From: Pirellula staleyi DSM 6068
Lineage (GTDB): Bacteria > Planctomycetota > Planctomycetia > Pirellulales > Pirellulaceae
Direction: 5' to 3'
DNA length: 32,000 bases
Assembly (NCBI GenBank): GCA_000025185.1
Contig: CP001848.1
Span: forward strand, 210,001 to 242,000
The notes below the pieces were generated by a model. The model was not told the origin of the DNA and did not search any database. It saw only the letters and a list, made by a program, of their open reading frames with translations. The translations under genes and the position numbers were made by a program. Positions 3,106 to 23,050 of this stretch are shown here, in pieces (position 1 is the first letter of the stretch; each line of letters begins with the position of its first letter).

Positions 3106-4446
3106 TCACAATAGCTCGCTGGCCAGATCGGCCAAAGCCGAACGCTCCCCTTTTTCGAGGGTGATGTGAGCGAAAATCGGTTGTCCCACCATGCGATGGA
3201 TCAGGTACGACAGGCCGTTAGAGAGGGCATCGAGGTACGGCTGATCGATCTGCCGAATATCACCCGTCAGGACGATCTTGGTCCCTTCACCAGCGCGCGT
3301 GATGATCGTTTTCACCTCATGCGGCGTGAGATTTTGTGCTTCGTCGATGATAAAGAAAATGCGCTGCAAGCTACGGCCACGGATGTAGGCCAGCGGTGTG
3401 ATCTGCAGCTTTTCGCTCTCGCGCATTTCGTTGATCCGCTGCGCGGCGGCATCGTTATCGTTGAACTGATGACGAATCACCGTCAGGTTGTCGTAGAGGG
3501 GCTGCATGTAGGGATCGAGTTTGGCGTCGATATCGCCCGGCAAGAATCCGAGATCGCGATTGCCCAGCGGCACCACCGGCCTGGCAAGCAGAATCTGCCG
3601 ATAGCGCTGACGACTTTCGAGTGCTGCGGCGAGCGCCAGCAGCGTTTTGCCCGTCCCTGCGGTCCCCGCGAGGGTGACGAGTTTAATGTCGTCGTTGGTG
3701 AGCGCTTTGAGCGCGAACGATTGCTCGGCATTGCGGGGCGAGATGCCGTAGTTCGTCGACTTTTCGACACGTACGAAGCACTTTTCCGCAGCCCGATAGG
3801 TCGCCAAAACCGATTTGCTGCCACTGCGCAAAATAAAGTTTTCGTTGGCAATCGGACTAGGAATGCAGCTGGCCAGTTCCTGCGGAACAAAGCCCCCTTC
3901 GGCATAAAATCGGCTGATCAGATCGGGGGGAGCATCTTCGATCACGCGTTTGCCGGTGTAGAGCTTGTCGAAGCTCTCGATCTTGTCGGTTGTGTAATCC
4001 TCGGCAGGAAGGCCCAGCGATTTGGCCTTCATGCGGAGGTTTGTATCTTTGGTAATCAGAATCACCGACCGATTGGGCTGCTGTTTTTGCAGCATCAAGG
4101 CAGTGTTCAGGATGCGATGGTCGGGGCAATCCTGAAAGAACGATTCTTTGAGGCGGCGATCGAGTTCACCACCAAGAACCACATGCATAGCCCCCATATT
4201 GGGGCCTAGCGAGGCACCTTCAGCCGACAGGGCTTCGCTGGTGACCGCATCGACTTTGCGAAGAAATTCACGGGCCTGGAAGTTGATGTCTTCGTTGCCT
4301 CGTTTGAACTTGTCGAGCTCCTCGAGCACCGTGATGGGTATCGCGATGTCGTGTTCTTCGAAGTTATTAATGCATCCGCTGTCGTGAAGAATGACGTTCG
4401 TGTCGAGGACGAACAGCTTGTTGCCAACTTCGCTCGAGATCATCAC
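3106..4446 (-). CDS. PIN-domain / PhoH-like ATPase fusion (PhoH2 / YlaK type)
   Basis: 446 aa. N-terminal PIN signature [11 protein letters not shown]...ITVLEELD...LITKDTNLR; Walker A GTAGTGKT; Walker B FIIDEAQN; PhoH block [10 protein letters not shown]. Confidence 0.9.
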
Positions 4447-4523
4447 GCGCTCCGTGCAGGTGTGAGATAACTCCTAGTCGCGTGCAGTCTGAGGTATTCG
4501 GCGAAAATCTGCAACATGGGGTT

Positions 4524-5754: not shown

Positions 5755-7680
5755 CTAACGCTGGCTCAGTTCATGCACGAAGTCGACCACGGCAATGGCG
5801 TTGTCGACTGGCGTTTGCTGCAGCACACCATGCCCGAGGTTGAAGATGTGACCGGCCCGACCGGCTGCTTCATCGAGCACTAATTTCACGCGCCGCTTCA
5901 GTTCATCGCGCGGGCCGAGCAGTGTGATCGGATCGAGATTCCCTTGCACGCTCCGATCGTAGCCCACCGTCTTCCAAGCGTCGGCGAGACTCACACGCCA
6001 ATCGACGCCAATCACACGTCCACCCGCTTCGGCCAGGAGTGGCAGTAGCGCCGGATTGCCCGTCGCAAAATTGATGACCGGCACGCCCGGCGTGATGCCA
6101 TCGATGATCGACGCGACGTGCGGCAACACATAACGACGATAGTCGTAAGGCCCCAGACAGCCGACCCACGAATCGAACAGCTGCACCACTTGCGCGCCTG
6201 AAGCGATCTGGGCATTCAAGTAGCGAGTGATCGAGCGCGATAGTTTTTGCATCAGCGCTGTCCAGGCTCCTTCGTCGCTATACATCAGCGATTTCGTCGT
6301 CAGATAGTTGCGGCTGCTCCCCCCTTCAATCGCATAGCTGGCGAGTGTGAAAGGGGAACCGGCAAAGCCGATGAGCGGCATATCTTCAGGAAGATCAGCG
6401 CGGGTTTGACGTACGGTTTCAAAGACAAAATCGAGCGAGCCGAGCTCTTCGAGTTCTTTCACGCGGTCGACATCGGCGGCTGTCTTGAGCGGGTTATGAA
6501 TCACCGGCCCCTCTCCTTTGGCGAACTCGAGATCGAGTCCCATCGGTTCGAGAATCGGCAACAGATCGGAGAAGATGATGGCGGCATCGACCCCCAGTCG
6601 CTTGACGGCTGTGCACATGATCTCGCTGCAGAGCGAGGGATTTTTGCACAGGTCGAGGAACGTCACTTGGCCGCGCACCGCGCGATACTCTTCCATGTAG
6701 CGGCCCGCTTGACGCATCAGCCACACCGGCGTGACGTCGGTCGGTTCGCCGCGACAAGCTTTGAGAAACGGGCTGTCGTACCAAGGTGCGTTTTGATCGA
6801 GTGCGTCGGTCATAGGTCCAGAGAGTGTCGACGCGATGCGCCGTTTTCGTGTGAGTACTTGAGAGGATCGTGCAGCGGCCGCGACAACGAGCGGCCCCAT
6901 TTTGGGATGTTCGGGTTCGATATCGACGGGCAAATCTTGCTCGCGCAACATTTCACTGGTGGTTGGTCCGACCGAGGCCACTACCATTTGGCGCAGCGCA
7001 TCGCGCACATCTTGCAGCAAGCCGAGTTGCTCAGCCATGCGGAGCATGTTCACCACTTGATGTGCCGAAGTAAACATCACCACATCGCGCTCGAGCGCCG
7101 CGATGGCGCGAATGTTGGCTTCGAGCTCCGTGGTATCTTCGGGAAAGTCCCACTGATACACGCGCACTTGCAGCACCTGCGCGCCGCGAGCTTCGAGCCC
7201 CGCCACCAGGCTATGGTTGGTGATGCCATACTCTTGTAGGCCGACGTTCAGGTTGGCAATCGGCACTTGCGCGTCGATGGTGGCCAGCAGATCGCGCCAG
7301 GTGTTCGGTTCAGGAACTTTTACCGTGGGGGTGAGTCCCACTTCGCGCATCGCAGCGACCGGCTTGGGGCCGCGACAGATGGTGGTGATGTCGGAGAGCG
7401 CGTGCAAAAATCGTTCGCGGTCGACATGCTTTTCCACCTGCGCGAGCAGATGTCGAAAACCGACGCCGGTCAAAAAAATCATGGCGTCGATGCCGCCGGT
7501 GATCAGTTTTTGAGCAAACTCCACCGCCGCCGGATTGGTGGCGATGGGAACTTCGCGCATGCTCGGACTCACGAACGGCTGGCCCCCCAACTTTTCGATC
7601 AGGCGGGCCATTTCCGCGCGGTTACGACTTTCGAGCGAAGCGACTCGCAGGCCTTCAAAATTTGCAGTTTCGGTGCTCAT
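5755..7680 (-). CDS. hemE: Fused uroporphyrinogen-III synthase (HemD-like, aa 1-~285) and uroporphyrinogen decarboxylase (HemE, aa ~290-641)
   Basis: The C-terminal half carries the HemE signature PFLKACRGEPTDVTPVWLMRQAGRYMEEYRA and ends with the typical FNLGHGV block. The N-terminal half has the two-lobed HEM4-like pattern (LRVASLESRN...IDAMIFLTGVG...VVMFTSAHQV...VASVGPTT). There is no stop codon between the halves. An internal in-frame ATG sits at 6811-6813 (aa 290). Confidence 0.88.
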   Translation of the reverse strand: MSTETANFEGLRVASLESRNRAEMARLIEKLGGQPFVSPSMREVPIATNPAAVEFAQKLITGGIDAMIFLTGVGFRHLLAQVEKHVDRERFLHALSDITTICRGPKPVAAMREVGLTPTVKVPEPNTWRDLLATIDAQVPIANLNVGLQEYGITNHSLVAGLEARGAQVLQVRVYQWDFPEDTTELEANIRAIAALERDVVMFTSAHQVVNMLRMAEQLGLLQDVRDALRQMVVASVGPTTSEMLREQDLPVDIEPEHPKMGPLVVAAAARSSQVLTRKRRIASTLSGPMTDALDQNAPWYDSPFLKACRGEPTDVTPVWLMRQAGRYMEEYRAVRGQVTFLDLCKNPSLCSEIMCTAVKRLGVDAAIIFSDLLPILEPMGLDLEFAKGEGPVIHNPLKTAADVDRVKELEELGSLDFVFETVRQTRADLPEDMPLIGFAGSPFTLASYAIEGGSSRNYLTTKSLMYSDEGAWTALMQKLSRSITRYLNAQIASGAQVVQLFDSWVGCLGPYDYRRYVLPHVASIIDGITPGVPVINFATGNPALLPLLAEAGGRVIGVDWRVSLADAWKTVGYDRSVQGNLDPITLLGPRDELKRRVKLVLDEAAGRAGHIFNLGHGVLQQTPVDNAIAVVDFVHELSQR

Positions 7681-7792: not shown

Positions 7793-8860
7793 TTAGGCAG
7801 CGTTGTCGGCCTTGTCTTTTTTCAGAATCGTGGCCAGTTCGCTCAGCAGACGTTTCCCTTGAGCCGAGCTCAGGAATTTTTCTGCTGTCGTTTCCAGCGC
7901 TGCAATGTTCACCGCATCGGCTTTATCCATATCGTCGTAGGCCGAATCGAGAATCGCCTGGAAACGGAAGTAACGATCTTTCTCGATCAGCTGCGAGGCG
8001 ATGTAGTCCACCGCGTCGGCGGCTCCGTCGAACAGCACGTCGACAATCGGCTTGGCCCACTCGACGGTCCCCCATTCGGTAGCTTCTTCGGCTGTGATCA
8101 CACGTGTGCTCTCCCCTGTACCGAAGCTCGCCACAATCAGGTCCCCCAGGCCGTTGGTCTTCGCATTCGCATCGCAGTTGAATCGTGCCGCCTCTGCGAT
8201 CGCACAAGCCGTAGGGTTGTTCGCCACCACACCACCATCAACAAGCGGGCGCTGCTTATGTACACCATCCACTCCCACGATCATCACATGACAAGGGAAA
8301 TACGTCGGCGCAGCACTCGAAGCCAGGCAGATATCGACCAGACGAAGCTTTGTATGTTCCGGTTTATGATTCTTAAACACGAGCGCCGCACGCGCCGCAA
8401 CGTCGTAGGCCGTTACTAGCGTAGGCTTGACGTGCAGATCACCAAACTCCATGTCGGCGAAAACTGCTTCGAGCTCGGCGCGGAGTCCATCAGGCTGATA
8501 CTTCGGCGCGCTCGCGCCGTCTTGAGGTAACCGGACCAAACGATCCCACAGCCGCGATGCCCGGCTCGGAAACACATTCATCCCACGTTCTTTGTAGAGC
8601 GAAACGATTTCTGCGGGCTTCTTTCCGGCGGAAATCGCGCAGGCCAAAATCGCGCCGGTGCTGGTCCCCGCGATGAGATCGAAGTAATCGCGCAGCGGAC
8701 CACCAAGCTTGTCCTCGAGTGCTTGAAGCCAGATGGCGGTCATGAGTCCACGAATGCCACCACCATCGAGCGAGAGTACACGGCGAATCGGATGCTTGGG
8801 GGACGGAGTTGTTTTGGCCATGGTGCAGGTCCTGACAGAAAACTTGGTAAGAATCCTCAT
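7793..8860 (-). CDS. Patatin-like phospholipase
   Basis: Oxyanion loop LSLDGGGIRG, nucleophile elbow GTSTGA (GxSxG), and catalytic Asp motif VDGGVVANNP. ATG 8821 (MAKTTPSP...) is an alternative, probably better, start than ATG 8860. Confidence 0.9.
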   Translation of the reverse strand: MRILTKFSVRTCTMAKTTPSPKHPIRRVLSLDGGGIRGLMTAIWLQALEDKLGGPLRDYFDLIAGTSTGAILACAISAGKKPAEIVSLYKERGMNVFPSRASRLWDRLVRLPQDGASAPKYQPDGLRAELEAVFADMEFGDLHVKPTLVTAYDVAARAALVFKNHKPEHTKLRLVDICLASSAAPTYFPCHVMIVGVDGVHKQRPLVDGGVVANNPTACAIAEAARFNCDANAKTNGLGDLIVASFGTGESTRVITAEEATEWGTVEWAKPIVDVLFDGAADAVDYIASQLIEKDRYFRFQAILDSAYDDMDKADAVNIAALETTAEKFLSSAQGKRLLSELATILKKDKADNAA

Positions 8861-12040: not shown

Positions 12041-12078
12041 TGACAAAACCGCCTGCTCGAAGTGAATCGAGCAGGCGG
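12041..12078 (-). terminator. Rho-independent terminator of the Cys-rich lipoprotein gene
   Basis: Perfect 12-bp stem ccgcctgctcga (12049-12060) / tcgagcaggcgg (12067-12078) with the 6-nt loop agtgaa. On the minus strand the hairpin is followed by TTTTGTCATTT. It lies 36 nt downstream of the stop codon at 12114. Confidence 0.65.
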
Positions 12079-12113
12079 TCTGTTGTCGTCGTAATCTCTA
12101 AACCAACTCTAGC

Positions 12114-13082
12114 TTAGCGAACCAAGCTGGTGCTGGCGTGAACGACCCGACGCTGAGTCGGAATGAAAGCCGAAGGATCAACCACTGGGGCTGGTGGCAT
12201 TGGAGCCACATCGCCACCGTGGATGGCCGTTGGGGCAGTCTGCATTGGGACAGGTGCATCGCAGCCACAAGCTGGGGCAGCAGCAGCACAGGTCGGAGCA
12301 GCAGCACCGCAGCTAGGAGCGGCAGCACCGCAACCAGGAGCAGCAGCCGAGCAGCTGTTGCAGCTATTGCAACCCGACTTGCAACCACCGAACAAGCAAC
12401 CACCCTTGCACTTCTTCTGGCAGCAGAAGATGCGGTCGAGGAGGCAAGGCTTGCAGCAGCTGTTGCAAGACGATCCGCAAGGCGAACCGCAGCTAGGAGC
12501 AGCAGCACAGCTTGGGCCGGCAGCGGCACAAGTTGGAGCAGCAGCGCCACAGCTTGGAGCAGCAGCTCCGCACGATGGGGCAGCAGCACCGCAGCTGGTC
12601 GAGCATGGGTCGCAAGCTGGCTTGCAGCACTTGTGGCGACCGAAGAGAGCTGGCTTGCAGCACTTCGAACCACAGGCCGAACCACAAGGCGAGCCGCAGC
12701 TAGGAGCAGCAGCACAGGTTGGGCCAGCAGCAGCACACGTTGGTGCAGCAGCGGCACAAGTTGGAGCAGCGGCTGCACAGGTAGGAGCAGCAGCGGCACA
12801 GGTTGGGGCAGCGGCTGCACACGTAGGAGCAGCAGCGCCACAGGATGGGGCGGCAGCACCGCAGCTTGGAGCTGCAGCTGCACAGCTGTCGCAACCGCCA
12901 CAGGCGGGTTTGCAGCAGCGGGTTTTCTTGCACTTTGGTTTGCAGCAGCTGGTTTCGCAGCAGCTGGTTTCGCAGCCGCAGCCGCTAGCACCAAGCATAC
13001 GATCCAGGAGTTCGAAACCAAAGCTCTGGCTACAGGCCGCAAGGCCAAGAACCAACGATCCAACAAAAATGTTCCACTTCAT
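12114..13082 (-). CDS. Secreted Cys-rich repeat protein, predicted lipoprotein (about 53 Cys; C-x6-C heptads plus CCKP-type motifs)
   Basis: ATG at 13082 is preceded by AGGAGA 8 nt upstream. The N-terminus MKWNIFVGSLVLGLAAC has a K-containing n-region, a hydrophobic core and an LAAC lipobox. The terminator lies just after the stop. The non-repetitive N- and C-termini are in the same frame as the repeats. The track ORF (to 13112) adds 10 unlikely residues. Other frames are also open here, so the frame choice rests on these start/stop signals. Confidence 0.65.
   Translation of the reverse strand: MKWNIFVGSLVLGLAACSQSFGFELLDRMLGASGCGCETSCCETSCCKPKCKKTRCCKPACGGCDSCAAAAPSCGAAAPSCGAAAPTCAAAAPTCAAAAPTCAAAAPTCAAAAPTCAAAGPTCAAAPSCGSPCGSACGSKCCKPALFGRHKCCKPACDPCSTSCGAAAPSCGAAAPSCGAAAPTCAAAGPSCAAAPSCGSPCGSSCNSCCKPCLLDRIFCCQKKCKGGCLFGGCKSGCNSCNSCSAAAPGCGAAAPSCGAAAPTCAAAAPACGCDAPVPMQTAPTAIHGGDVAPMPPAPVVDPSAFIPTQRRVVHASTSLVR
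12267..12884 (-). repeat. Three arrays of 21-bp (heptad-coding) tandem repeats inside the Cys-rich gene: 12696-12884 (8 heptads), 12492-12593 (4), 12267-12353 (4)
   Basis: The peptide units CAAAAPT/CGAAAPS/CAAAGPT are repeated. The DNA units differ mainly at wobble positions (plus strand examples: acaggttgggccagcagcagc, acacgttggtgcagcagcggc, acaagttggagcagcggctgc, acaggtaggagcagcagcggc). Arrays 1 and 2 sit in a larger duplicated module, CCKPAC...heptads...CAAAPSCGSPCGS.C..(K/C)CCKP. Confidence 0.85.
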
Positions 13083-14187
13083 CGAGCGACGTCTCCTAAA
13101 CGATGGAACCATCGAACTGGCGCATTACCCGGTCCGGCCGGATTGCGTGTCTCGTGTCGAACGCGGCGCCAAGATTGGCTTCGCGGTCGGCACAAGCACG
13201 CATGGACTCGGTCACTCCCATCCAATGGGTAGCGACTCGATTTGCGGGGTTTCGCTTGTGAGGTTTGACCCTTCGAGGGTTTTGTCGGGCACCAAAGCCG
13301 GGCGAGTCGTCCCTTGACTCACTAGTGGTGAAAGCCGGTGATCTGGATGCCTTAGAAACCACCGTCTGCAACCGTTAAGCTGCAGTCGGTTGTTCTGCGA
13401 CAATAGCGGTATCGTCGGGCGAAAGCGGATCGCTTGAACGTTCGCAAACAATTTTCCCCAATGAGTTTACGGCGACGATCACAGAGAGATTGCCGCCTCT
13501 GGAAGATAGTCAAACCTTGCCGTTTATAGGGCCACCGGAGGCCCCAAAACCGACCGCAAACTCACCGTCCAGCGTCAAGGTTTACCTAGGCCCAACACCC
13601 CTAATTGGGGTCATCCGGCGAGCCTTTCGCGCCAAAATCTTTTGCCGCCGGGCCACTCGGAGCAGCGAGGGCCGATGCCAGTTTTTCGAGCTAGCAGCCG
13701 CACAGATTTCCCCTACGGAATAACAGGCGCGAGGCGTGCTCTATGGCGCGCGAATTTCCCCACGTATCAGCGCTGCTCGATCTCCGCCGCGAGATTGTCA
13801 CGGGCTTGTGAGTTGCCCAAGTCCCGCCTGATCCCGACCCAGCTCGCGAATCAGCAGCCAGGGGGCGCTTCCCCGCCAAGTTGCCCGAAAATGAACATTT
13901 TTCCGCCCCTGGGCCCCAATACTCGAGGATGTCGAGCGAACGGAGAATAAGCTGAGATAGAACCTTTCAGGAGGCTCCCCCGTCTTTACTAAAAACCACG
14001 GCCCTTTTCAGCTGATTTCTCTTGCCTCGCGACCTCTTGCGCGCGAGAACTTCCGCTGCTAATCCGCTGGGCTCGCACTGACATCCTCCCCGGCAACGCT
14101 CGAAATCGATGGTTCCGTACCCCTGCCTAAAGGCTGACGACGACTTGCTGCTTCCCACTTGATGGCCGACAAGACCCGGTGACAGGT

Positions 14188-17100
14188 ATGCCAATCCCCT
14201 TTCAATGTCCTCAATGTGGTGGCTCGTTCGCAGCCCCCGATGCGCTCGCTGGCAAAAAAGCCCGCTGCCAACGCTGTTCGTCAGTCGTCACCGTGCCGGC
14301 TCAAGCTCCTCCGCCGGTGATGCCACCCAAGCCGAGCGACGATCCTTTCAAGGCGCTCGGCCCTGTTGCCGATCCCCTAGCGCCGCTGGCTCCCGTGGTT
14401 CAAATGCCAGCCAAACCGGCCCCGATGGCGGCCCCCGATCCGCTCCTAAGTCCTTACAATCCAGCCTCTTACCCCGCGTCGCTCGCCAGCGGAAGTGGCT
14501 ACCAGCTCCCTCCTCCCACCACGACGTCGTCAGGAAACTCGGCTGGCATGACGGTCGCCATCGTCGGCGGCGTGCTGCTGCTACTGGTTGTCGGCGGCGC
14601 GGGAGCGATGTGGGCCTTTGGCGGCAGATCAGCACCGCCGGGTCCAAGTGGACTTGCGGGAGGGGGCCCCTCGGGCGGTCCTCCTTCCAATTTCAGCAAC
14701 AACGGCGCACTGTTCCTGCCCGACAACAACGTGGTGGCCAGCAATTCGGGTTCGCCGCCGAGTTCGAACCCCTCGTTTCCTGGACGACCAGGGATGCCGG
14801 GCCCCAGTTTTCCTGCCCCAGGAATACCTGGGCCTAGTTTTTCCGGACCCGGCTTTCCCGGCCCTGGTGCACCTCCAGGTCTAACGCCAACTTCGCCCGG
14901 TTCTTCCACGACACCACCGGCAACACCCAGCTGGTCGGGTGGACTGGCCGAGAATCCTGCGGCGATTCCGACGACACCCAGTGCTCCTGCGCCGACGCTG
15001 CCGACCACCCCCACAGCAGCGCCGGGTGATGTTCCGAACCTCCCTTCAACCGAACCGGTTTCGACAACCAATCCCCCGGCGGAAAATGCGACTCCAGAGT
15101 CGCCACTGGCGATGCAGTGGCAAGCGGAAGCCGATCCGATGCCGCAGCCCGTGGAGTACAAGAAGGGAAAGATCGAAATCACCCTCCCCTCGCAGGTCGA
15201 AATCATTCTGCCGGTGAGTACCAGCCATTTTGTGATGGCAGGTGCCTCGGAAGGGTTGAAAGAACTCCGTCAGGTGTTTGATCTCCGAACCGGTAAAGCG
15301 ATTGGGCAGCCGATCGCTCAGCGTGTCGAGAAGATCGGCGATACGGAGGTCCTTTCACCCGATGGTCGCTACATGGCGCTCGTGCAGGAACAGCGGAGCG
15401 AGAGTATTCGGGTCGGTGTCTACTCCTTTGCCACTGGCGCGATTGCGCGGGAATTCAAGCTCGAAGGGGCCGATGTCACCGGGCCGCTCCGTTTTGGAGC
15501 ATCGCACCATCTCGTGATCCTGTATCGCACCAAGGATCGCGAGCAGCAGGTGCTGGCCCACTACAACATTCAAACGGGGGAGAAGGTTTCCGAGGTTAAG
15601 TTCGACGATAACTTTCGCTCGGAAATGCGGATCATGCCCGAGTCGCTCACCATCAGCCCCGGCGGACGTTTTGCCGCAGTTCTGATGGGAGAAGCGATTG
15701 GGGTGATCGACCTCACGAGCGGCAAGCCAGCTGGCGCTTTGCAGCTGTCGAAAAAGCCTTCCCGCAGCGATGGAATGTCGTTCTCGCCCGACGGCACCAA
15801 ACTCGCCGCCATGATCTCGACCACAGGTTCGCACCAGCTATACGTCTTCGATTTCCAGTCGGGCAAAACGTTGCTCGATCACGATTACGGAGAGCGTCTC
15901 AGTTCGTTTTCCTACAAAGGTCCCGAACTCGACTGGGTCCCCGATGGAAGTGGCCTGGTGTATCAAGGGCACCTGCTTCTGGAGCCGACGACCGGTGGCG
16001 AAGTGTGGGAATTTCCTCACACCGACAACTCGCCCCGACGGATGGTGCGCCCTGGCGAAATCTTGGTGCTGCTCCGAAATCGAGGCACTAAGGTGCTGGG
16101 AACTGCCGACCTGCCCGAGAAGGATATCGCGGCCGCAGTGCGCTCGATTCGCGAAGGTGGCAACGCCATCGATTCGATTTTGCCTCCGCTTTCGACTCCG
16201 GACCTGTTTGCCGCGCGGCAAATGACCCTGCCCGATGGTTTTGTTCAGTGGACACCCACGGTCGATCCCGGCGATCGTCCCCTAACGGGTGCCGACCGCG
16301 ATGTGCTGATTGCTGCTCCCGGTGAAACGCTGCGACGTGCGATTTTTGCATCCCCGAGCTCGAAGAAGGTGGTGATCCAAAAAGAGATCACCCCGCGCGG
16401 GTCGGTGGGACGCCGCGCTGAACGCAAAGCGGTGATCGAACGCTACGATGTCGCCACTGGATCGAAAGGAAACACGCTCGATGTCCCCACGGTCTATCAG
16501 CTAGCCGACGTTAGTCCGAGCGGCAACTTGGCTCTTCTCGCATTCGCGCAGAAGTCGCGCGATTACGATCGACTCGACGTCCTCCAGATCAGCCCCAAAA
16601 AGCACCTGACTGGTTGGCGTCCTTACGCCAACGAAGTGAAAGACGAAAGCAAACCGTACACGCCACCCTCTAGGCTGCATCGTGGTCGCTGGTTTAGTGC
16701 TGATGCGGTGAAGACGGTCGCCTGGTCGAAATTTATCGACGACGAGCATCTGCTGACCGTCAATCCGGCTGGCAAGCTGATCTGCTGGAAACTCCCCGAA
16801 TGCAAGGCACTCTACGTGTTTGCCGATTTCGGAGAGCCACTCGCGATCTCCCCTGCCGGCAAGTATTTTGCTGGTGCGCATCACGGTCAGTTCCGGGTCT
16901 TCGAATCGCACACCGGCAACTGTGTGGGTGATCTCGAAGCACCGGCCATTGGCACCGAGCCTCTTCGTGCTGCATTCCGGGCCGATGGCAAAGAACTTAC
17001 CTCGGTGGTGAGTGGCGGCGCCGACACCATGCTGGTCCGCTGGGATCTCGAGACCGGCAAACGGACGCATGAGTTTCCGGTCCCCTCGCTGGCACTTGCA

Positions 17101-18018
17101 AGTGGCGCTTTTCAGTTCGACTTCTCGACCTATCAGCAGGCTGCATCGCTGGAGTATCGCGGCGACAATCATCTGATGATCGATGGGGTCTACATGGTCG
17201 ACCTCAACAAAAGAGCAGTCACTTGGCAGTATCAATTGGTCGGCGGCATGCTCGCCCAGCGCAGTCCGAGCGTCGGGAACTGGTTCATCTCGTCCAAGAG
17301 TGGCATTAACTACAACGAACCGTTGTTCCTCGCTAAGCAAGATGCGCCGAGTGCTGCCGTCGAATCGCGCACCGCCGCAGTCTCGATCGAACGTCAGTTG
17401 GTGGTCTATCCCGGCATGAGTGTGCGGGTGATGGTCGACCTGAATGCCACCGGCATGAGCCAGTATCAGAAGGATGTCGAGCGGAACATCGTCGAAGGCC
17501 TGACGCAGCGTGGACTGCGTGTCGATCCCAATGCCGAGATGCTGTTTACGTTTGTCACCGGACAGCGTTCGACCGGAAACACCATCGGCTTTTACAAGAA
17601 TACGAGCCCCTTTGGGATGGGTTTTCCCGGAAGCATGTTTGGTGAACCTCGCGGCGAGATGACCGGCTCGACGGAGCAGATGCAGATGATGTATCGCATT
17701 GCGTTCTCGGATCGGAGCGGACGAGTGCTGTGGCATCTCGATCAAGCTTCCACCATGCGCGAAAGCGGGAAAATTAACCCCGACAACGCGGCCGCCACGC
17801 TGCAAGCCGAAATGGTGAATCATTTCGACGCCATGATTCGTGGCAGCGGCGGCGCGATGCGGAGTGTGCCGCGCTATGTGTTTCGCGACTTCCACGAGTG
17901 TGTTGCAGGGCAATCGCGGCTGAAATTGGGGGGGGAAATCATCGAACCGGTGATGAAACCAGCGCCACCTCAGGGACAGCCTGCGGCACCCAATCCAACG
18001 ATTCAGCCCGGCACCTAG
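14188..18018 (+). CDS. Large single-pass membrane protein: N-terminal MJ0042-type zinc ribbon, Pro-rich linker, TM helix, P/S/T-rich stalk, WD40/TolB-like beta-propeller repeats
   Basis: N-terminus MPIPFQCPQCGGSFAAPDALAGKKARCQRCSSVVTVP (CxxC-x17-CxxC). TM helix GMTVAIVGGVLLLLVVGGAGAMWAF. Recurrent propeller-blade strings: LSPDGRYMAL, ISPGGRFAAV, FSPDGTKLAA, WVPDGSGLVY, VSPSGNLALL, ISPAGKYFAG, FRADGKELTS. The track start GTG 14179 is possible; ATG 14188 is preferred. Confidence 0.85.
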   Translation: MPIPFQCPQCGGSFAAPDALAGKKARCQRCSSVVTVPAQAPPPVMPPKPSDDPFKALGPVADPLAPLAPVVQMPAKPAPMAAPDPLLSPYNPASYPASLASGSGYQLPPPTTTSSGNSAGMTVAIVGGVLLLLVVGGAGAMWAFGGRSAPPGPSGLAGGGPSGGPPSNFSNNGALFLPDNNVVASNSGSPPSSNPSFPGRPGMPGPSFPAPGIPGPSFSGPGFPGPGAPPGLTPTSPGSSTTPPATPSWSGGLAENPAAIPTTPSAPAPTLPTTPTAAPGDVPNLPSTEPVSTTNPPAENATPESPLAMQWQAEADPMPQPVEYKKGKIEITLPSQVEIILPVSTSHFVMAGASEGLKELRQVFDLRTGKAIGQPIAQRVEKIGDTEVLSPDGRYMALVQEQRSESIRVGVYSFATGAIAREFKLEGADVTGPLRFGASHHLVILYRTKDREQQVLAHYNIQTGEKVSEVKFDDNFRSEMRIMPESLTISPGGRFAAVLMGEAIGVIDLTSGKPAGALQLSKKPSRSDGMSFSPDGTKLAAMISTTGSHQLYVFDFQSGKTLLDHDYGERLSSFSYKGPELDWVPDGSGLVYQGHLLLEPTTGGEVWEFPHTDNSPRRMVRPGEILVLLRNRGTKVLGTADLPEKDIAAAVRSIREGGNAIDSILPPLSTPDLFAARQMTLPDGFVQWTPTVDPGDRPLTGADRDVLIAAPGETLRRAIFASPSSKKVVIQKEITPRGSVGRRAERKAVIERYDVATGSKGNTLDVPTVYQLADVSPSGNLALLAFAQKSRDYDRLDVLQISPKKHLTGWRPYANEVKDESKPYTPPSRLHRGRWFSADAVKTVAWSKFIDDEHLLTVNPAGKLICWKLPECKALYVFADFGEPLAISPAGKYFAGAHHGQFRVFESHTGNCVGDLEAPAIGTEPLRAAFRADGKELTSVVSGGADTMLVRWDLETGKRTHEFPVPSLALASGAFQFDFSTYQQAASLEYRGDNHLMIDGVYMVDLNKRAVTWQYQLVGGMLAQRSPSVGNWFISSKSGINYNEPLFLAKQDAPSAAVESRTAAVSIERQLVVYPGMSVRVMVDLNATGMSQYQKDVERNIVEGLTQRGLRVDPNAEMLFTFVTGQRSTGNTIGFYKNTSPFGMGFPGSMFGEPRGEMTGSTEQMQMMYRIAFSDRSGRVLWHLDQASTMRESGKINPDNAAATLQAEMVNHFDAMIRGSGGAMRSVPRYVFRDFHECVAGQSRLKLGGEIIEPVMKPAPPQGQPAAPNPTIQPGT

Positions 18019-18291: not shown

Positions 18292-21009
18292 ATGACGATC
18301 GAAATGGCTTGCCCGCACTGTCAAAACGTACTGAAGTTTCGCGACGAACTGGCGGGGCGCAAGGGGAAGTGCCCCAAGTGCACCGGGGTGATCGAAGTGC
18401 CGCAAGTCGCCGCCGCAGCCCCAGCTGCTGCAGTTCCGGCCTCGAAACCCGCACCTAAGCCAGCAACTGCCAAACCGGCGGGACCTGCAACTAGCGCCAC
18501 CAAACCGGCGGCGGCGAAACCAGCCGCTGCGGCCAATCCGACAGCAGCGCCGGTTCGGCCGGCCCATCCAGTTCGTCCACCGCAAGCCAAACCACTGACA
18601 GCCGCCCCTTCGGCCGCTTCTCCCGCTGCGCGTGGACCAATTGCCTTCGACGCCCCCGATTCCCCCTTCATTCTCGAGCCAGCAGCTGCCACCACAGCGC
18701 CGCAGCCTCAGGTAGCACCGTCCCCCGCAGTCGGACCAACGGTCGCCGGAGTCTCGGTCGCCTCCACTGCCTTCAGCCCGACCAATGCCCCCACTCGCTC
18801 GCCACAGGTTGGGGCTGCAGCGCCGCTGATGGGCGAATCGCTGCGACAACAAGTGATGGGAGGCTTTCTCGGCCCGATTCAACCAGTCCCTGTTTCGTTT
18901 TCCTATCGACTCGGCATTATCCTGTCGGCGATGGTGATGCTGCTGATGCCGATCGTCTATTTTTCGATGATCGGCGTTGTCGCACTCGCCATGTGGTGGC
19001 ACCTCACCAACAACATGGGAATTCTCGGCGCCTCGCGCGGACGCGGCGGCGTGTTCCTGTTCATCATCTACTTGATGCCGGTTGTCGTAGGTGCCGCGCT
19101 CATCTTTTTCATGATCAAACCACTCTTCTCGCGCTCGAGTGGTCGCAACGTCATCCGTTCACTTTCCCCGCAAAGCGATCCGCTGCTGTTCGAGTTTGTT
19201 CATCGTGTCTGCGCGATCGTCGGAGCCCCTGCCCCTCGTCGTATCGATGTCGACTGCGACATCAACGCATCGGCCGGTTTTCGCAATGGCATTTTCAGTT
19301 TAATGGGAAGCGACCTGGTTCTCACCATTGGCTTGCCACTGGCGGGCGGCCTTTCGCTCGAGCAGTTTGCCGGCGTTTTGGCCCACGAATTCGGCCATTT
19401 TGCGCAAGGCACTGGGATGCGCATCACCTACATCACACGCTCAATCAACCACTGGTTTCTGTTCGTGGTCTATCAGCGCGATCGGTGGGACGACATGCTC
19501 GTCGATGCTTCGCAGTCGTACGACATACGCATCTCGTGGGTCTTCTACCTCGCGCGATTTGTGATCTGGATTGTCCGGATGGTGCTGCTGGTGCTGATGA
19601 AAATCGGCCATGCCGCCACCGGCTACATGCTGCAGCAGATGGAATACGACGCCGATCGCTACGAAGCTCGCGTCGGTGGCAGTCACACGTTTGAAGCAAC
19701 TTCGCGACAGATTCAAGTGCTGGGTCTCGCTCATCGTGGCGCACAGGCCGATCTCGAATTCTTCTTCAAGGAAGGTCGACTCGCTGACAACTTGCCGCGA
19801 CTCATCCTGGCGAATGTGCGACAGCTTCCGGCCGAAGCGTTGGAGTTCATCAACGACAACATCAAGAACGGCAAGACCGAACTGTTCGACACGCATCCTT
19901 GCGACCGCGATCGCATTACCAGCGCGTGGCAAGAACAGGCACCGGGCGTTTATCGCGGTTCGCTCCCTGCTTCGGTGCTCTTTACCGACTACGACACCCT
20001 CGCGCGAATCGTGACGTGGGATTACTACTTCGACATTTTTGGCGACAAGCTGAAGCGCGAGCAGTTGCATCCGGTCGAACAGATGGTCGAGCGTAGCGAT
20101 CGCGAAATGGCGGTGAGCAAGTCACTCGATCACTTCTATCTCGATGCGTTTTCGCCGCTGCGTCCTCTCCTGTTGCCCGCCTACACCATCACACCGACCA
20201 CCGATGGCGACGGGACGAAGCGTCAGCTGATTCAAGCGCGCAACGAGCAGATGTCGGCCTGCCTCACCTACCGCCAAGCGCTTAAGCATTTCAAAACGAT
20301 CGACAAAAATCTCGTCGAAGCAGCGCGCGCGATGGTGATCTACCAGGCTTCGGCGGTTCCCGATCCGCAGCAGTTCGAGCACTACTTTAATAGCTCGCGG
20401 GAAGCGTACGAGTTTCAGTATCGTCAGCAGCAAGAGCTAGTGACTTGCTGTGGACTGATGCAACGTTTCGAGACCGCGATTGGCTGGCGCGTGTACAGTG
20501 CCCTCGTGCTGCTGGCGAACACCAAAGTGCAAGCCCGCATTGAAGGGGCAGCGGAGAAGTTTCAGCAGCTCTCGAAACTGCTCCCTGTCGTTACGGTGTT
20601 CGCCGCGCGGCATCAGGCGGTGCTTGATGTGCGTAACAGTTTGTCGCAGATCAACACCTTCATGGGACACTACGAAGCGAATCAGCAGAACGGTGCGTTT
20701 TTCTCGAAAGCCAACGAACTGCTAAGCGCGCTCTCTTTGAAACTCATCACGCTGGCCGATTTGCTCGACAAGGTCGACTATCCGTTCGATCATGCCGAGG
20801 GGAAAATCTCGCTCCGCAAATTTTTGCTCCCCGAGAATCCCGACCCGCAAAATGTGGGGCAAACCGCCGACTGCGCCGACAAGTTGCTCGACAACTTGAT
20901 CTCGGTCTACGTGCGCTGCGTCGGCAGACTCTGTGTCGGTGCGCTCGAAGTCGAGAAAGCGTTGGGACTAGAGCCGCTGGTTTCACCTCCGGTGGAAAAA
21001 GAAAAATAG
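18292..21009 (+). CDS. M48-family zinc metalloprotease with N-terminal MJ0042-type zinc ribbon, Ala/Pro-rich linker, TM helices and a long C-terminal helical domain
   Basis: N-terminus MTIEMACPHCQNVLKFRDELAGRKGKCPKCTGVIEVP. HExxH in FAGVLAHEFGHFAQG. The third-ligand region MEYDADRYEA matches the E..AD motif of M48. Several hydrophobic helices flank the catalytic domain. Confidence 0.88.
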   Translation: MTIEMACPHCQNVLKFRDELAGRKGKCPKCTGVIEVPQVAAAAPAAAVPASKPAPKPATAKPAGPATSATKPAAAKPAAAANPTAAPVRPAHPVRPPQAKPLTAAPSAASPAARGPIAFDAPDSPFILEPAAATTAPQPQVAPSPAVGPTVAGVSVASTAFSPTNAPTRSPQVGAAAPLMGESLRQQVMGGFLGPIQPVPVSFSYRLGIILSAMVMLLMPIVYFSMIGVVALAMWWHLTNNMGILGASRGRGGVFLFIIYLMPVVVGAALIFFMIKPLFSRSSGRNVIRSLSPQSDPLLFEFVHRVCAIVGAPAPRRIDVDCDINASAGFRNGIFSLMGSDLVLTIGLPLAGGLSLEQFAGVLAHEFGHFAQGTGMRITYITRSINHWFLFVVYQRDRWDDMLVDASQSYDIRISWVFYLARFVIWIVRMVLLVLMKIGHAATGYMLQQMEYDADRYEARVGGSHTFEATSRQIQVLGLAHRGAQADLEFFFKEGRLADNLPRLILANVRQLPAEALEFINDNIKNGKTELFDTHPCDRDRITSAWQEQAPGVYRGSLPASVLFTDYDTLARIVTWDYYFDIFGDKLKREQLHPVEQMVERSDREMAVSKSLDHFYLDAFSPLRPLLLPAYTITPTTDGDGTKRQLIQARNEQMSACLTYRQALKHFKTIDKNLVEAARAMVIYQASAVPDPQQFEHYFNSSREAYEFQYRQQQELVTCCGLMQRFETAIGWRVYSALVLLANTKVQARIEGAAEKFQQLSKLLPVVTVFAARHQAVLDVRNSLSQINTFMGHYEANQQNGAFFSKANELLSALSLKLITLADLLDKVDYPFDHAEGKISLRKFLLPENPDPQNVGQTADCADKLLDNLISVYVRCVGRLCVGALEVEKALGLEPLVSPPVEKEK

Positions 21010-21075: not shown

Positions 21076-22887
21076 ATGCCCACCCGCGACGAACTGACGA
21101 CAACCTACCAGCAGCTGCGCGATGAACTTCTCGCCGAGCGCACAGCGCAAGGCTATTGGGAGGGAGAACTCGCCACATCGGCCGTTTCCACAGCGACGGC
21201 TGTTTCGGCCCTTTCGCTTGCCACCCGCGCGGCGATCGATAGCGGCACGTTCGTCGCGGAAATTCCGGCCTGGACGTCGCTCGCCACACGCGGCGCTGAA
21301 TGGCTCGCCGAGCATCAAAATCCTGATGGCGGTTTTGGCGATACCGACCGAAGTTACTCGAACATCGCGACGACGTATCTGGTCACCGCTGCGCTGTCGC
21401 TCGCTCCTGGCCAGCAGCCGTTTCGCGCAGTGATCGATCGCGCCGATAGCTACATTGCCCAGCATGGAGAACTCGCCGGGCTACGTCGTCGCTATGGGAC
21501 CGACAAGACCTTTGTCGTGCCGATCATGACGAACCTGGCGCTTGCCGGTCGCGCTAGTTTTCGCGAGATCCCGGCTCTTCCGTTCGAACTGGCGTGCGTG
21601 CCGCAGTCGTGGTATCGGCTGATGAAGATGCCGGTGGTGAGCTATGCCATTCCAGCTTTGGTGGCGATCGGGCAAGCTCACTATTTTCTGGCTCCTCCGT
21701 GGAATCCGATCACGCGCATCGTCCGCTCGATGAGCATCGAGCGCAGCTTGCGTGTGCTGCTGTCGATGCAGCCTGAGAGTGGCGGCTATCTGGAAGCGAC
21801 ACCGCTCACCAGTTTTGTGGTGATGAGTCTGGCGGCGACCGGTCGGTTGTCGCATCCGGTCACGCAATCGGGTTTGCGATTCATCAAGGACTCGGTTCGA
21901 CCCGATGGAAGTTGGCCGATCGATACGAACCTGGCGACCTGGAACACAACGCTCGCCACGCTCGCACTGGCCGCGCGAGGTGATGAGCGCGACCTCGCGA
22001 GCATCGTATCGCCCGAGTTGGTGCGCTGGATTTTGTCGTGTCAGCATTTGGTGCGACACCCGTTTACAGGGGCCGAGCCAGGTGGCTTTGGCTGGACCAA
22101 TCTGAGCGGCGCAGTCCCCGATGCCGACGATACGCCCGGCGCTCTGTTGGCGCTTGCTGCTGTTCGCGATCTACCGTCGCTCGCCACTCTCGCCAGCGAG
22201 ATCGATCGGTCGGCTGAACTCGCGGTGCGCTGGCTTTTGAAACTGCAGAATCGCGATGGAGGCTGGCCCACGTTTTGCAAAGGGTGGGGACAGCTGCCGT
22301 TTGATCGAAGTGGCAACGACTTGACCGCCCATGCCATTCGCGCGCTTGAAGCGTGGAAAGATCGTCTCGCCGCGGCGGGAAAAATCTCGGCCAGCGACCT
22401 TCGCACCATCGACACCTCCCTGGCGCGTGGCTGGCGCTATCTCGAGCAGCATCAGTCGGCCGACGGCTCGTTTTTGCCCCTGTGGTTTGGGAATCAGGAC
22501 CGTGCGGATGAGGACAATCCGGTCTACGGCACCGCCAAAGTGCTGGCAGCTTGCCGTGATACCAATCGGTGGAAGTGTCCATTGGCCCGGCGGGCGACAG
22601 CGTGGATGCTGACCCAGCAAAACGCCGATGGGAGCTTCGGAAGCAGCCTCGAGGAGACATCACTCGCGGCCGAAGTGCTTCACCAGGAAGCACTTGAGTC
22701 AACAGCAGCAGCCCAGGGGCTGGAGCGCGCCCTCGCTTGGATGGTTGCGCAAGTAGCGTCGGGCAAACATCGCCGGGCCGAGCCAATTGGTTTCTACTTC
22801 GCGAAGTTGTGGTATTATGAGAGGCTCTATCCTGTGACGTTTTCGCTCAGCACGGTGGGGCGCGTGTTACGCACACTCGCTCCGTGA
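21076..22887 (+). CDS. Squalene-hopene cyclase family class II terpene cyclase (short, 603 aa)
   Basis: DxDD motif in PGGFGWTNLSGAVPDADDTPGALLAL (DADD at 22120-22131), compared with PGGFAFQFDNVYYPDVDDTAVVVWAL in A. acidocaldarius SHC. QW-type repeats: QNPDGGFG, LQNRDGGWPTF, QSADGSFLPLWFGN, QQNADGSFG. The C-terminal PIGFYFAKLWYYERLYPVTFSLSTVGR resembles the SHC C-terminus. Confidence 0.88.
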   Translation: MPTRDELTTTYQQLRDELLAERTAQGYWEGELATSAVSTATAVSALSLATRAAIDSGTFVAEIPAWTSLATRGAEWLAEHQNPDGGFGDTDRSYSNIATTYLVTAALSLAPGQQPFRAVIDRADSYIAQHGELAGLRRRYGTDKTFVVPIMTNLALAGRASFREIPALPFELACVPQSWYRLMKMPVVSYAIPALVAIGQAHYFLAPPWNPITRIVRSMSIERSLRVLLSMQPESGGYLEATPLTSFVVMSLAATGRLSHPVTQSGLRFIKDSVRPDGSWPIDTNLATWNTTLATLALAARGDERDLASIVSPELVRWILSCQHLVRHPFTGAEPGGFGWTNLSGAVPDADDTPGALLALAAVRDLPSLATLASEIDRSAELAVRWLLKLQNRDGGWPTFCKGWGQLPFDRSGNDLTAHAIRALEAWKDRLAAAGKISASDLRTIDTSLARGWRYLEQHQSADGSFLPLWFGNQDRADEDNPVYGTAKVLAACRDTNRWKCPLARRATAWMLTQQNADGSFGSSLEETSLAAEVLHQEALESTAAAQGLERALAWMVAQVASGKHRRAEPIGFYFAKLWYYERLYPVTFSLSTVGRVLRTLAP

Positions 22888-23050
22888 CCACCTTAAGCGA
22901 GAGGCCGAGTGACAGCGTAGAGCCCTGCCGCAGCAGGCTCGTGGTCATCGCTGCTAGCTTGTGCCAGTTCGTGGTCCGTTGACGACTCCAGCTTGAGTAA
23001 CCCCCGCCCGACTGCAACCTGCCCCCTCCGCGTATCGTGAGGATGACCTT

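Follow-up and report, generated by a model that had tools for sequence, protein, structure and literature searches.

The stretch of the Pirellula staleyi DSM 6068 genome considered here, hereafter the window, comprises 32,000 nucleotides (contig CP001848.1, positions 210,001 to 242,000 of the forward strand; all coordinates below count from its first letter) and carries on its minus strand, at 12114-13082, a gene encoding an extremely cysteine-rich protein of 322 amino acids, with its stop codon at 12114-12116. The product, deduced from the list of open reading frames (ORFs), the minus-strand translation and comparison with homologues, begins with MKWNIFVGSLVLGLAAC and contains 54 cysteines (16.8%), about every sixth residue, together with 75 alanines, 35 prolines, 32 glycines, 31 serines and no tyrosine, while the 13 other credible proteins of the window contain 0.5-3.5% cysteine. 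An initial annotation of this DNA, made from the sequence alone, had counted about 53 cysteines, or some 16% of the residues, and 53 is indeed the number obtained when Cys17 of the signal peptide is left out. The gene is monocistronic, diverges from the gene of a 1279-aa protein and converges on an unannotated gene. Comparison with its homologues places it in an undescribed family of the Pirellulaceae. Exported Cys-rich envelope proteins are of a known general kind, and what is distinctive here is the architecture: a signal peptide, an FGF(E/D)LLDRMLG helix, two or three Cys-rich arrays split by LLDRIF-like helices, and a PMPPAPVVDPSA tail ending in Arg.

In the window protein, all parts of which are encoded on the minus strand, the first 20 residues (MKWNIFVGSLVLGLAACSQS, 13023-13082) form a Sec-type signal peptide, as predicted from the sequence and by family comparison, with MK as n-region, a hydrophobic core of 14 residues and, ahead of F21, small residues at -3 and -1. 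Within it, residues 14-17 read as a lipobox, LAAC, the codon of Cys17 lying at 13032-13034. The invariant N-terminal motif SFGFELLDRMLG (residues 20-31, 12990-13025) was recognised by alignment and is predicted by AlphaFold to be helical at residues 22-29; it is followed by a CC-rich block, cap 1 (GCGCETSCCETSCCKPKCKKTRCCKPACGGCDS, residues 35-66, 12885-12980), whose start is conserved family-wide. Thereafter the pattern C[AGS]AA[AG]P[STAG] occurs 16 times in three arrays (8+4+4, at residues 67-122, 164-191 and 244-271), and a 6-residue CAAAPS unit closes the first and the second of them. Array 1, with eight C[AG]AA[AG]P[ST] heptads plus CAAAPS, extends over residues 67-128 (12699-12884), array 2, with four heptads plus CAAAPS, over residues 164-197 (12492-12593), and array 3, with four heptads, over residues 244-271 (12270-12353). 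The repeats contain neither Lys nor Arg. The 16 heptads in three modules of four to eight reported by the initial annotation are borne out by this translation, and Tandem Repeats Finder agrees independently, with a period of 21 nt at 12705-12885 (8.6 copies), 12498-12587 (4.3 copies) and 12265-12347 (4.0 copies). Linker 1 (CCKPALFGRHKCCKP, residues 141-156, 12615-12662) is a degenerate LLDRIF-like element with LFGRHK at residue 146, and its alignment partners in homologues are RKPLFNFNRCCKPK and RRPLMELVGK linkers. A conserved internal helix, CLLDRIFCC (residues 213-221, 12420-12446), was found by alignment and coincides with a helix predicted by AlphaFold at residues 214-223; its L214, L215 and F219 are nearly invariant in the family alignment. 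The CC-rich caps quoted earlier (GCGCETSCCETSCCKPKCKKTRCCKPACGGC, KCCKPACDPC and FCCQKKCKGGC) were all found letter for letter, and CCKP is present four times. The further claim that each module ends in CGSPCGSxC applies to the first two modules; the third closes with CGCDAP. The protein finishes with a tail, GGDVAPMPPAPVVDPSAFIPTQRRVVHASTSLVR (residues 289-322, 12117-12218), that is conserved in the family alignment, and 33 nt past the stop codon lies an intrinsic terminator (12046-12081, minus strand), with a 15-bp stem containing 9 G-C pairs and a U-rich tail.

Four ORFs of 322-384 aa overlap at this locus, on both strands, and 65 loci have an antisense ORF of 100 aa or more. One might therefore suppose that the true product is an antisense reading (with GAAAAQV/GAAAPQL repeats, from the plus-strand ORF 12163-13317), or that nothing is made at all, the Cys frame being a by-product of a GC-rich repeat. 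Variation among the 16 DNA units falls mostly at the third codon positions of the Cys frame (entropy by position 1.4, 2.4 and 8.1), and a six-frame count of synonymous versus non-synonymous differences between the repeat units gives 340/247 for the Cys frame and 318/262 for the antisense GAAAAQV frame. As the latter shares third positions and scores almost equally, this test within the window fails to separate the two frames and was dropped as a proof. The homologues do separate them. In a census of 73 distinct homologous coding sequences, only 4 had no stop codon in the GAAAAQV frame, 15 and 2 had none in the other antisense frames, and 0 were open in the shifted sense frames, so that the rival frames hit stops in 58-73 of the 73, whereas the Cys frame always spans from a conserved Shine-Dalgarno site and ATG through to the conserved C-terminal tail. 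The string [AG]GGAGA..TGGCTC..ATG is kept in 68/68 distinct loci; in the window, the Shine-Dalgarno site with its conserved spacer (AGGAGACGTCGCTCG, 13083-13097, minus strand) lies directly before the ATG. This conservation is non-coding, because a 1-nt indel occurs in the region between clades, and the longer ORF starting from ATG 13112 is a spurious extension because it crosses the conserved Shine-Dalgarno site (AGGAG, 13093-13097); the choice of ATG 13082 as the start in the initial annotation was correct. Moreover, the plus-strand ORF would cross the leader, where frame-shifting indels separate clades, and the terminator sits on the minus strand. The conserved termini, the stops in rival frames, the Shine-Dalgarno site and ATG, and the terminator together indicate that 12114-13082 is a real gene whose Cys frame is settled by homologues, and the probability that another frame, or none, is translated appears negligible. 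The initial annotation had itself held that a lack of orthologues keeping the Cys frame would speak against its reading; such orthologues exist, with conserved termini and stops in the rival frames. The three further ORFs of 322-384 aa over the gene (within 12098-13317; one in another sense frame and two on the opposite strand) are by-products of repeats rich in GCN, TGC and CCN, and an annotation might wrongly list them as genes.

A protein search with the window sequence returned 308 matches, the best with 59% identity, a second search seeded from a distant member returned 416, and relatives turned up in 454 species when a single genome of each species was scanned. The named genera that were checked (Anatilimnocola, Aureliella, Rosistilla and Laterigemmans) are all Pirellulaceae, and Rubripirellula, Novipirellula and Aporhodopirellula also appear; no R. 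baltica orthologue was among the matches listed. An exhaustive hidden Markov model search yielded 461 cluster representatives at 50% identity, all of 88-332 aa and matched from residue 1, and no domain fusions occurred among them. The gene is apparently present once per genome, as the 80 fetched loci come from 80 different assemblies with one family locus each, and when the window and all loci were translated in six frames, both signature motifs occurred once per locus and only in the Cys-rich gene. The source names of all homologues are 'hypothetical' or 'uncharacterized', also in named cultured strains; cultured carriers are Rubripirellula lacrimiformis (K227x_06970), Novipirellula artificiosorum (Poly41_12050), Rosistilla oblonga (CA51_05110) and Anatilimnocola sp. 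NA78. The UniRef label 'Stigma-specific protein' on one of them was rejected as an automatic mislabel of a Cys-rich protein. The window protein had 0 matches in Pfam (E<=1) and NCBIfam and only noise at E>0.1 in a profile search of the PDB, in agreement with the initial annotation, which knew of no characterised family. Among 30 relatives compared with Pfam, the only matches were two to keratin models, both due to composition. The C-terminal 49 aa, searched alone as a potential portable sorting signal, gave only 18 matches, which were short gene fragments.

Conservation in this family is concentrated at the two ends of the protein. The N-terminal motif, [SP][FY]G(F)(E/D)LLDRMLG, comes directly after the signal peptide and has invariant alignment columns at S20, G22, L25, L26, R28, M29 and L30; window residues 1-31 fit a signal peptide plus [SP][FY]G..LL[DS]RML, as do 80/120 matches of the first search, the others being fragments. 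The Cys-rich part begins G-C-G-C-[ED]-x-x-C-C-E across the family, with C37 and C42 invariant, and contains internal LLDRIF-like elements (in the window LFGRHK at 146 and LLDRIF at 214), of which one or two are described here, the family median being 3. The tail has the consensus (G)GD.APMPPAPVVDPSA[FY].P..RRV[VI][HQ]A[ST]..[YLF]VR, with P296, P297, A298, P299, D302, P303, A305 and R311 invariant; window residues 294-322 fit P[PA]AP..DP.A ... R[RN]V ... terminal Arg, and the last residue is Arg in 71/74 members, after hydrophobic residues ([YFL]-V-R). The initial annotation lacked the FGF(E/D)LLDRMLG motif after the signal peptide and the internal LLDRIF-like helices, and it passed over the tail as a 'Pro-rich non-repeat' although this is the most conserved part of the protein (PMPPAPVVDPSA...RRVV...R-COOH).

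Between these ends, little is kept apart from cysteine. Members of the 74-member set are 207-379 aa long, with whole-protein Cys fractions of 0.10-0.24, and their middle region consists of 20.5% Cys, 15% Gly, 15% Ala, 9% Ser, 8% Pro and about 1% aromatic residues; that of the window protein has 20% Cys, within the 10-25% used to define the family. The net charge of the middle region lies anywhere between -41 and +19, and the repeat units vary widely and differ completely between clades, PACGCE, CCEPK, GKGDSC and KAASPYQAPSCT being among them. The CAAAAPT heptad, prominent in the initial annotation, does not define the family: the longest C-x6-C run has 8 units in the window, 3-6 in the closest relatives and at most 2 in other members, so that such runs are confined to the window's subclade, and the commonest unit family-wide is P[AST]CGC[ED]. 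The CAAAAP[ST] heptad is thus a local derivative of P[AST]CGC[ED], with Ala in place of the second Cys and of the acidic residue. AlphaFold2, run with a 30-sequence alignment, gave a mean predicted local distance difference test score of 48.8 and only four short helices (the signal peptide and residues 22-29, 214-223 and 303-306), and the window protein is predicted to be largely disordered. As far as the alignments tell, only both ends, the short helices and Cys density are kept, while repeat sequence, repeat number and net charge drift freely. The family is in this respect an extreme case: selection preserves nothing but Cys density and two short linear motifs, and repeats turn over completely between genera. 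Of the 74 members, 43 have an odd and 31 an even number of cysteines after removal of the signal peptide. This speaks against a fixed disulfide fold within the molecule and is compatible with links between molecules.

High Cys density as the sole conserved property of the middle region, in a protein that is exported, would also be in line with a periplasmic redox buffer, a sacrificial thiol-disulfide reservoir whose cysteines cycle to absorb oxidants or to store oxidising equivalents. Such a role would, however, leave the strictly conserved, docking-type terminal motifs unexplained, no thioredoxin-fold, Dsb or reductase partner is linked to the gene, and we know of no precedent for such a protein; we consider it improbable.

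The view of the initial annotation that an exported, extremely Cys-rich modular protein is made here is supported, a signal peptide being present in every full-length family member. Its designation as a lipoprotein may hold for the window's subclade and does not extend to the family. The L-A-A-C at the end of the window's signal peptide (residues 14-17) fits [LVI][ASTVI][GAS]C, and a canonical lipobox occurs in 7/74 members, all of them close relatives of the window protein. A Cys at the lipobox position is found in 61/74 members and is replaced by Ser or Thr in 13/74; most of the remaining members have L/I/M/V at -1, against the lipobox rule, and all members share a signal-peptidase-I-like site, [small]-x-S followed by [FY]G, with small residues at -3 and -1. 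Lipidation may be a feature of the subclade, but because the lipobox is canonical in so few members and its Cys is absent in 13, lipid anchoring cannot be the conserved mechanism of the family. The same counts bear on an Lpp-like lipoprotein tether, a variant of the cross-linked envelope protein favoured below, in which acylated Cys17 would serve as the anchor in the window's subclade, the Arg-ended tail would bind peptidoglycan or an outer-membrane partner, and the Cys/Ala/Pro repeats would be an adjustable spacer. This proposal draws on the canonical L-A-A-C of the window protein and its closest relatives, on the nearly universal terminal Arg after hydrophobic residues, and on invariant ends enclosing a middle of variable length. 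Apart from the rarity of the lipobox, it is opposed by the fact that no binding partner was identified and that Arg, in contrast to the Lys of Lpp, is to our knowledge not an attachment substrate of L,D-transpeptidases, and we regard it as unlikely.

The codon usage of the gene differs strongly from that of neighbouring genes: GCT supplies 65% of its Ala codons (16% in the neighbours), CCA 60% of Pro (14%), GGT 56% of Gly (23%) and AAG 80% of Lys (47%), GCG and CCG are nearly absent, and the GC content at third codon positions is 0.52, versus about 0.67 for the rest of the window's genes. In 75/75 homologous loci, too, GCT is more frequent than in neighbouring genes. Together with the invariant Shine-Dalgarno site, this codon usage suggests that the gene is selected to be translated efficiently. 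The bias could stem from high expression, from mRNA structure or from repeat stability; no EF-Tu, GroEL, RpoB or similar calibration gene was contained in the fetched loci.

The gene is preceded by a structured 5' leader (13098-13385, minus strand), recognised by its fold z-score and by covariation, which includes a conserved bulged hairpin at 13290-13340 with a GAGTC-AAGGGAC-GACTC core at 13302-13322. The 303 nt upstream of the ATG (13083-13385) fold with z = -4.36, and 0/100 shuffled sequences fold as well. In 21 clade-A loci, the inner helix of the hairpin is 95.9% paired and shows compensatory changes in 4/7 pairs, and its G-U pairs are valid on the sense strand only. Rfam contained no match for the window leader and nothing credible for the other leaders. 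Just before the Shine-Dalgarno site, the window leader also carries a CCGGCCGGACCGG / CGATGGTTCCATCG block, and GGAG...CTCC could pair in such a way as to occlude this site ([AG]GGAGA(C/T)(G/T)TGGCTC, conserved at the nucleotide level across genera); in loci L052 and L059 the intervening bases are changed and the GGAGA/TCTCC complementarity is kept.

A different structured RNA, of about 130 nt, occupies the 5' leader in clades B and C, at approximately -210 to -80 nt from the ATG (for example L033:7796-7923 and L001:10135-10264; also in L001, L013, L018-L035 and others), and is not found in the window. Fourteen of its 36 predicted pairs show compensatory changes, and it contains two invariant, mutually complementary stretches, GAACGAAGUC and GGCGACUUCGUCC, the second of which lies in a hairpin loop; judging from their complementarity, the arms ACGAAGUCG / CGACUUCGU could form a pseudoknot or take part in a switch or alternative pairing. 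A covariance model of this element matches only the sense strand just upstream of the family gene. The 34 clade-C loci that it finds score 41-126 bits, matches in clade B and Aureliella score 16-28 bits, and the window and its subclade give no match. The structured leaders are candidates for new cis-regulatory RNAs.

The genes around the family gene change between clades. In the window, the divergent neighbour (14179-18018, plus strand; 1279 aa) carries a zinc ribbon at its N-terminus and a long low-complexity stretch rich in Pro; it also shows WD40/PD40-like beta-propeller signals and matches DUF4136 weakly, and next to it is the gene of a 905-aa M48-peptidase homologue (18292-21009, plus strand). 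This propeller and M48 pair is syntenic with the family gene only in L072, and M48 alone also in L011. Upstream of the family gene in clades B and C, and divergent from it, lie genes for a cupin (60 of 82 loci), a degenerate receiver (55) and two PQQ beta-propellers (46). The window's subclade is without these neighbours, whose annotation carries no functional information. The small cupin shares the leader-containing intergenic region (60/82 loci; examples of cupin/receiver loci are L001:9286-9747 and 4093-4488, and L002:8761-9129 and 8159-8533), and the degenerate single-domain receiver stays linked where the PQQ propellers are lost (Aureliella, L038). Across the 82 loci, no Dsb, metal-resistance or modification gene is consistently linked, and SCO1/SenC is nearby in only 5. 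Further away in the window lie a PIN-PhoH protein gene (3106-4446, minus strand), a fused HemD-HemE gene for uroporphyrinogen-III synthase and decarboxylase (5755-7680, minus strand), and a squalene-hopene-cyclase-like gene followed by a DUF116-polyprenyl synthase fusion (21076-25072, plus strand).

This context bears on the idea that the protein is a substrate for thiol modification, or a precursor resembling those of ribosomally synthesised and post-translationally modified peptides (RiPPs), with the N-terminal motif acting as a leader for modifying enzymes and the repeats as cores. The Cys cores are indeed repeated, and the N-terminal motif is conserved far beyond the needs of a plain signal peptide; but the motif comes after a Sec signal peptide, the C-terminal tail is conserved to an equal degree, and no gene for a modifying enzyme, protease or transporter is conserved adjacently, the neighbours being the beta-propeller protein, the M48 peptidase homologue and hopanoid genes in the window, and the cupin, degenerate receiver domain and PQQ propellers elsewhere. 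A RiPP-like role is, in our opinion, very unlikely.

From these observations we infer, tentatively and with rather less than even confidence, that the protein is a disulfide-cross-linked envelope matrix or tether, and we favour this role over that of a metal sponge. The chain would be exported unfolded via Sec; in the window's subclade it might be lipid-anchored at Cys17, and elsewhere it would be cut by signal peptidase I. Large amounts would be made, if the conserved Shine-Dalgarno site, the atypical codon usage and the structured leader are taken as guides. The periplasm is an oxidising compartment, in which the approximately 50 thiols would form disulfides between repeats and between molecules, and the conserved N- and C-terminal motifs would dock the protein to fixed envelope partners, the outcome being a flexible, covalently cross-linked envelope matrix or tether.

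The chief competitor is a metallothionein-like sponge for soft metals in the periplasm, in which the disordered chain would bind Cu(I), Zn, Cd or similar through clustered thiolates together with Glu/Asp or His, and would buffer or store metal in the large planctomycete periplasm; if true, this would be the first Sec-exported metallothionein-like metal sponge. Cysteine spacing over the family is indeed metallothionein-like (CxC 18%, CC 10% and C-x3-C 25% of gaps), P[AST]CGC[ED] prevails among the units, the residue after Cys is most often Gly, Glu or Asp, the middle region has only about 1% aromatic residues, and His reaches 4-7% in some members (P0004, P0023 and P0106). The conserved, structured and possibly switch-like leader RNA of the sister clades would suit ligand-responsive control, and one subclade, with 5 loci, has SCO1/SenC and DUF420 genes in the vicinity. 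On the other hand, the protein would be exported by a Sec-type route as an unfolded apo chain into an oxidising compartment, where known Cu/Ag binders such as SilE, PcoE and CusF use Met/His ligands rather than Cys, and the one Cys-lined store known to us, Csp1, is a folded Tat substrate. The net charge of the supposed binding region swings from -41 to +19, the window member is largely without CxC (4% of gaps) and has one Cys per 7 residues in 16 units, no metallothionein model was matched, and no metal-resistance or regulator gene is consistently adjacent, SCO1 being present in only 5/82 loci. That Cys density alone is kept while charge and repeats drift fits covalent cross-linking better than a tuned metal site. 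We prefer cross-linking because the charge swings between members, the window member has lost CxC units, Cys parity is random, export is by Sec and periplasmic metal binders generally use Met/His. The metal sponge is nevertheless a possibility to be taken seriously, if a distinctly weaker one; the cross-linked scaffold and the metal buffer, both already proposed in the initial annotation, remain the two leading hypotheses on the role of this protein.

Several points weigh against a cross-linked envelope matrix or tether. Every member is annotated as 'hypothetical', and the published Cys-rich wall proteins of planctomycetes are the YTV proteins, another family (PMC12673574, PMC8567305). The hallmarks of metallothioneins, namely the C-G-C-[ED] unit, CC pairs and about 1% aromatics, are family-wide, and some members are enriched in His, up to 7%. 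The reference for the codon bias consists of neighbouring genes, known highly expressed genes being absent from the fetched loci, and the bias could instead come from repeat or mRNA-structure constraints. Lastly, no partner of the terminal motifs was identified, and no Dsb or other envelope gene was consistently linked in the fetched loci.

Pirellulaceae are abundant on marine and freshwater particles and in biofilms, and their envelope is poorly understood. In early work, the planctomycete wall was reportedly found to be SDS-resistant and dominated by protein. Reviews describe planctomycete walls as protein-dominated, and the Cys-rich wall proteins known so far carry YTV motifs (PMC12673574, PMC8567305); our literature searches for experimental data on the present family turned up only YTV proteins. 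The conserved, apparently once-per-genome and probably highly expressed gene described here, with its approximately 50 cysteines and two docking-type termini, offers a concrete candidate for an envelope matrix or tether. A more speculative extension, which we think doubtful though worth stating, is that this family, instead of or beside the YTV proteins, constitutes an abundant cystine- and proline-rich part of the classical 'proteinaceous, disulfide-stabilised' envelope of the Pirellula type, and that it is governed by a new class of structured, possibly ligand-sensing 5' leader RNAs, to which the pseudoknot-capable element of the sister clades, with its invariant arms, would belong.

Among known systems, the YTV wall proteins of Planctomycetia come from the same phylum, are likewise rich in Cys and Pro, and are the current candidates for the proteinaceous wall; they were found in cell-wall preparations made from R. 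baltica, Gemmata and Tuwongella (PMC12673574, PMC8567305). The family described here differs from them in having no YTV Pfam match and a different architecture, the window protein has no Tyr, and the named members are all Pirellulaceae. Metallothioneins and thiolate stores (bacterial SmtA/BmtA and MymT, and Csp1 of methanotrophs) resemble it in their high Cys content, in CxC/CC/CxxC spacing (CC 13%, CxC 4% and CxxC 13% of gaps in the window protein; CxC 18% and CC 10% in the family), in the scarcity of aromatics and in a composition rich in Gly, Ala, Ser and Lys. Unlike metallothioneins, which are cytosolic and below about 10 kDa, the family members have 200-380 aa, a Sec signal peptide and terminal motifs, and no match to a metallothionein model of Pfam or NCBIfam, and the window member is dominated by isolated Cys at 7-residue spacing. 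Two further systems are functional analogies only, with no homology: SilE/PcoE are disordered periplasmic chains with repeated ligand motifs, based on Met/His and not on Cys, and Lpp, which is small, abundant and exported, combines an N-terminal anchor with a spacer function and a C-terminal basic residue, although it differs from the present family in being a coiled coil that ends in Lys.

Mammalian high-sulfur keratin-associated proteins (Keratin_B2, PF01500; Keratin_B2_2, PF13885) share with this family low-complexity Cys-rich repeats, CC-x-P motifs and presumed matrix-forming disulfides, and the initial annotation had drawn this parallel. It does not go beyond composition: the keratin models are reached by 2/30 relatives, which have CCEPxCCEP repeats (best E=1.7e-8), and not by the window protein, so that the resemblance is a compositional convergence; unlike keratin-associated proteins, the family is bacterial, is Sec-exported and has conserved non-repeat termini. 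OmcA and OmcB are Cys-rich proteins of the chlamydial outer-membrane complex, within the PVC superphylum, and are proposed to be disulfide cross-linked. They are comparable to the present family in having a signal peptide, about 15% Cys, an envelope location and a proposed stiffening disulfide network, and OmcA, a small lipoprotein, shares a lipobox with the window protein. There is, however, no sequence similarity, as no Pfam family was found at E<=1 for the window protein and no chlamydial match among the 30 relatives; OmcA is of about 9 kDa and non-repetitive, while the family here has LLDRMLG and PPAPVVDPSA termini and long low-complexity repeats, and its cross-linking is only proposed. 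By analogy, we infer that in its mode of action the family would come closest to the Cys-rich envelope complex of chlamydiae or to the matrix proteins associated with keratin, being homologous to neither.

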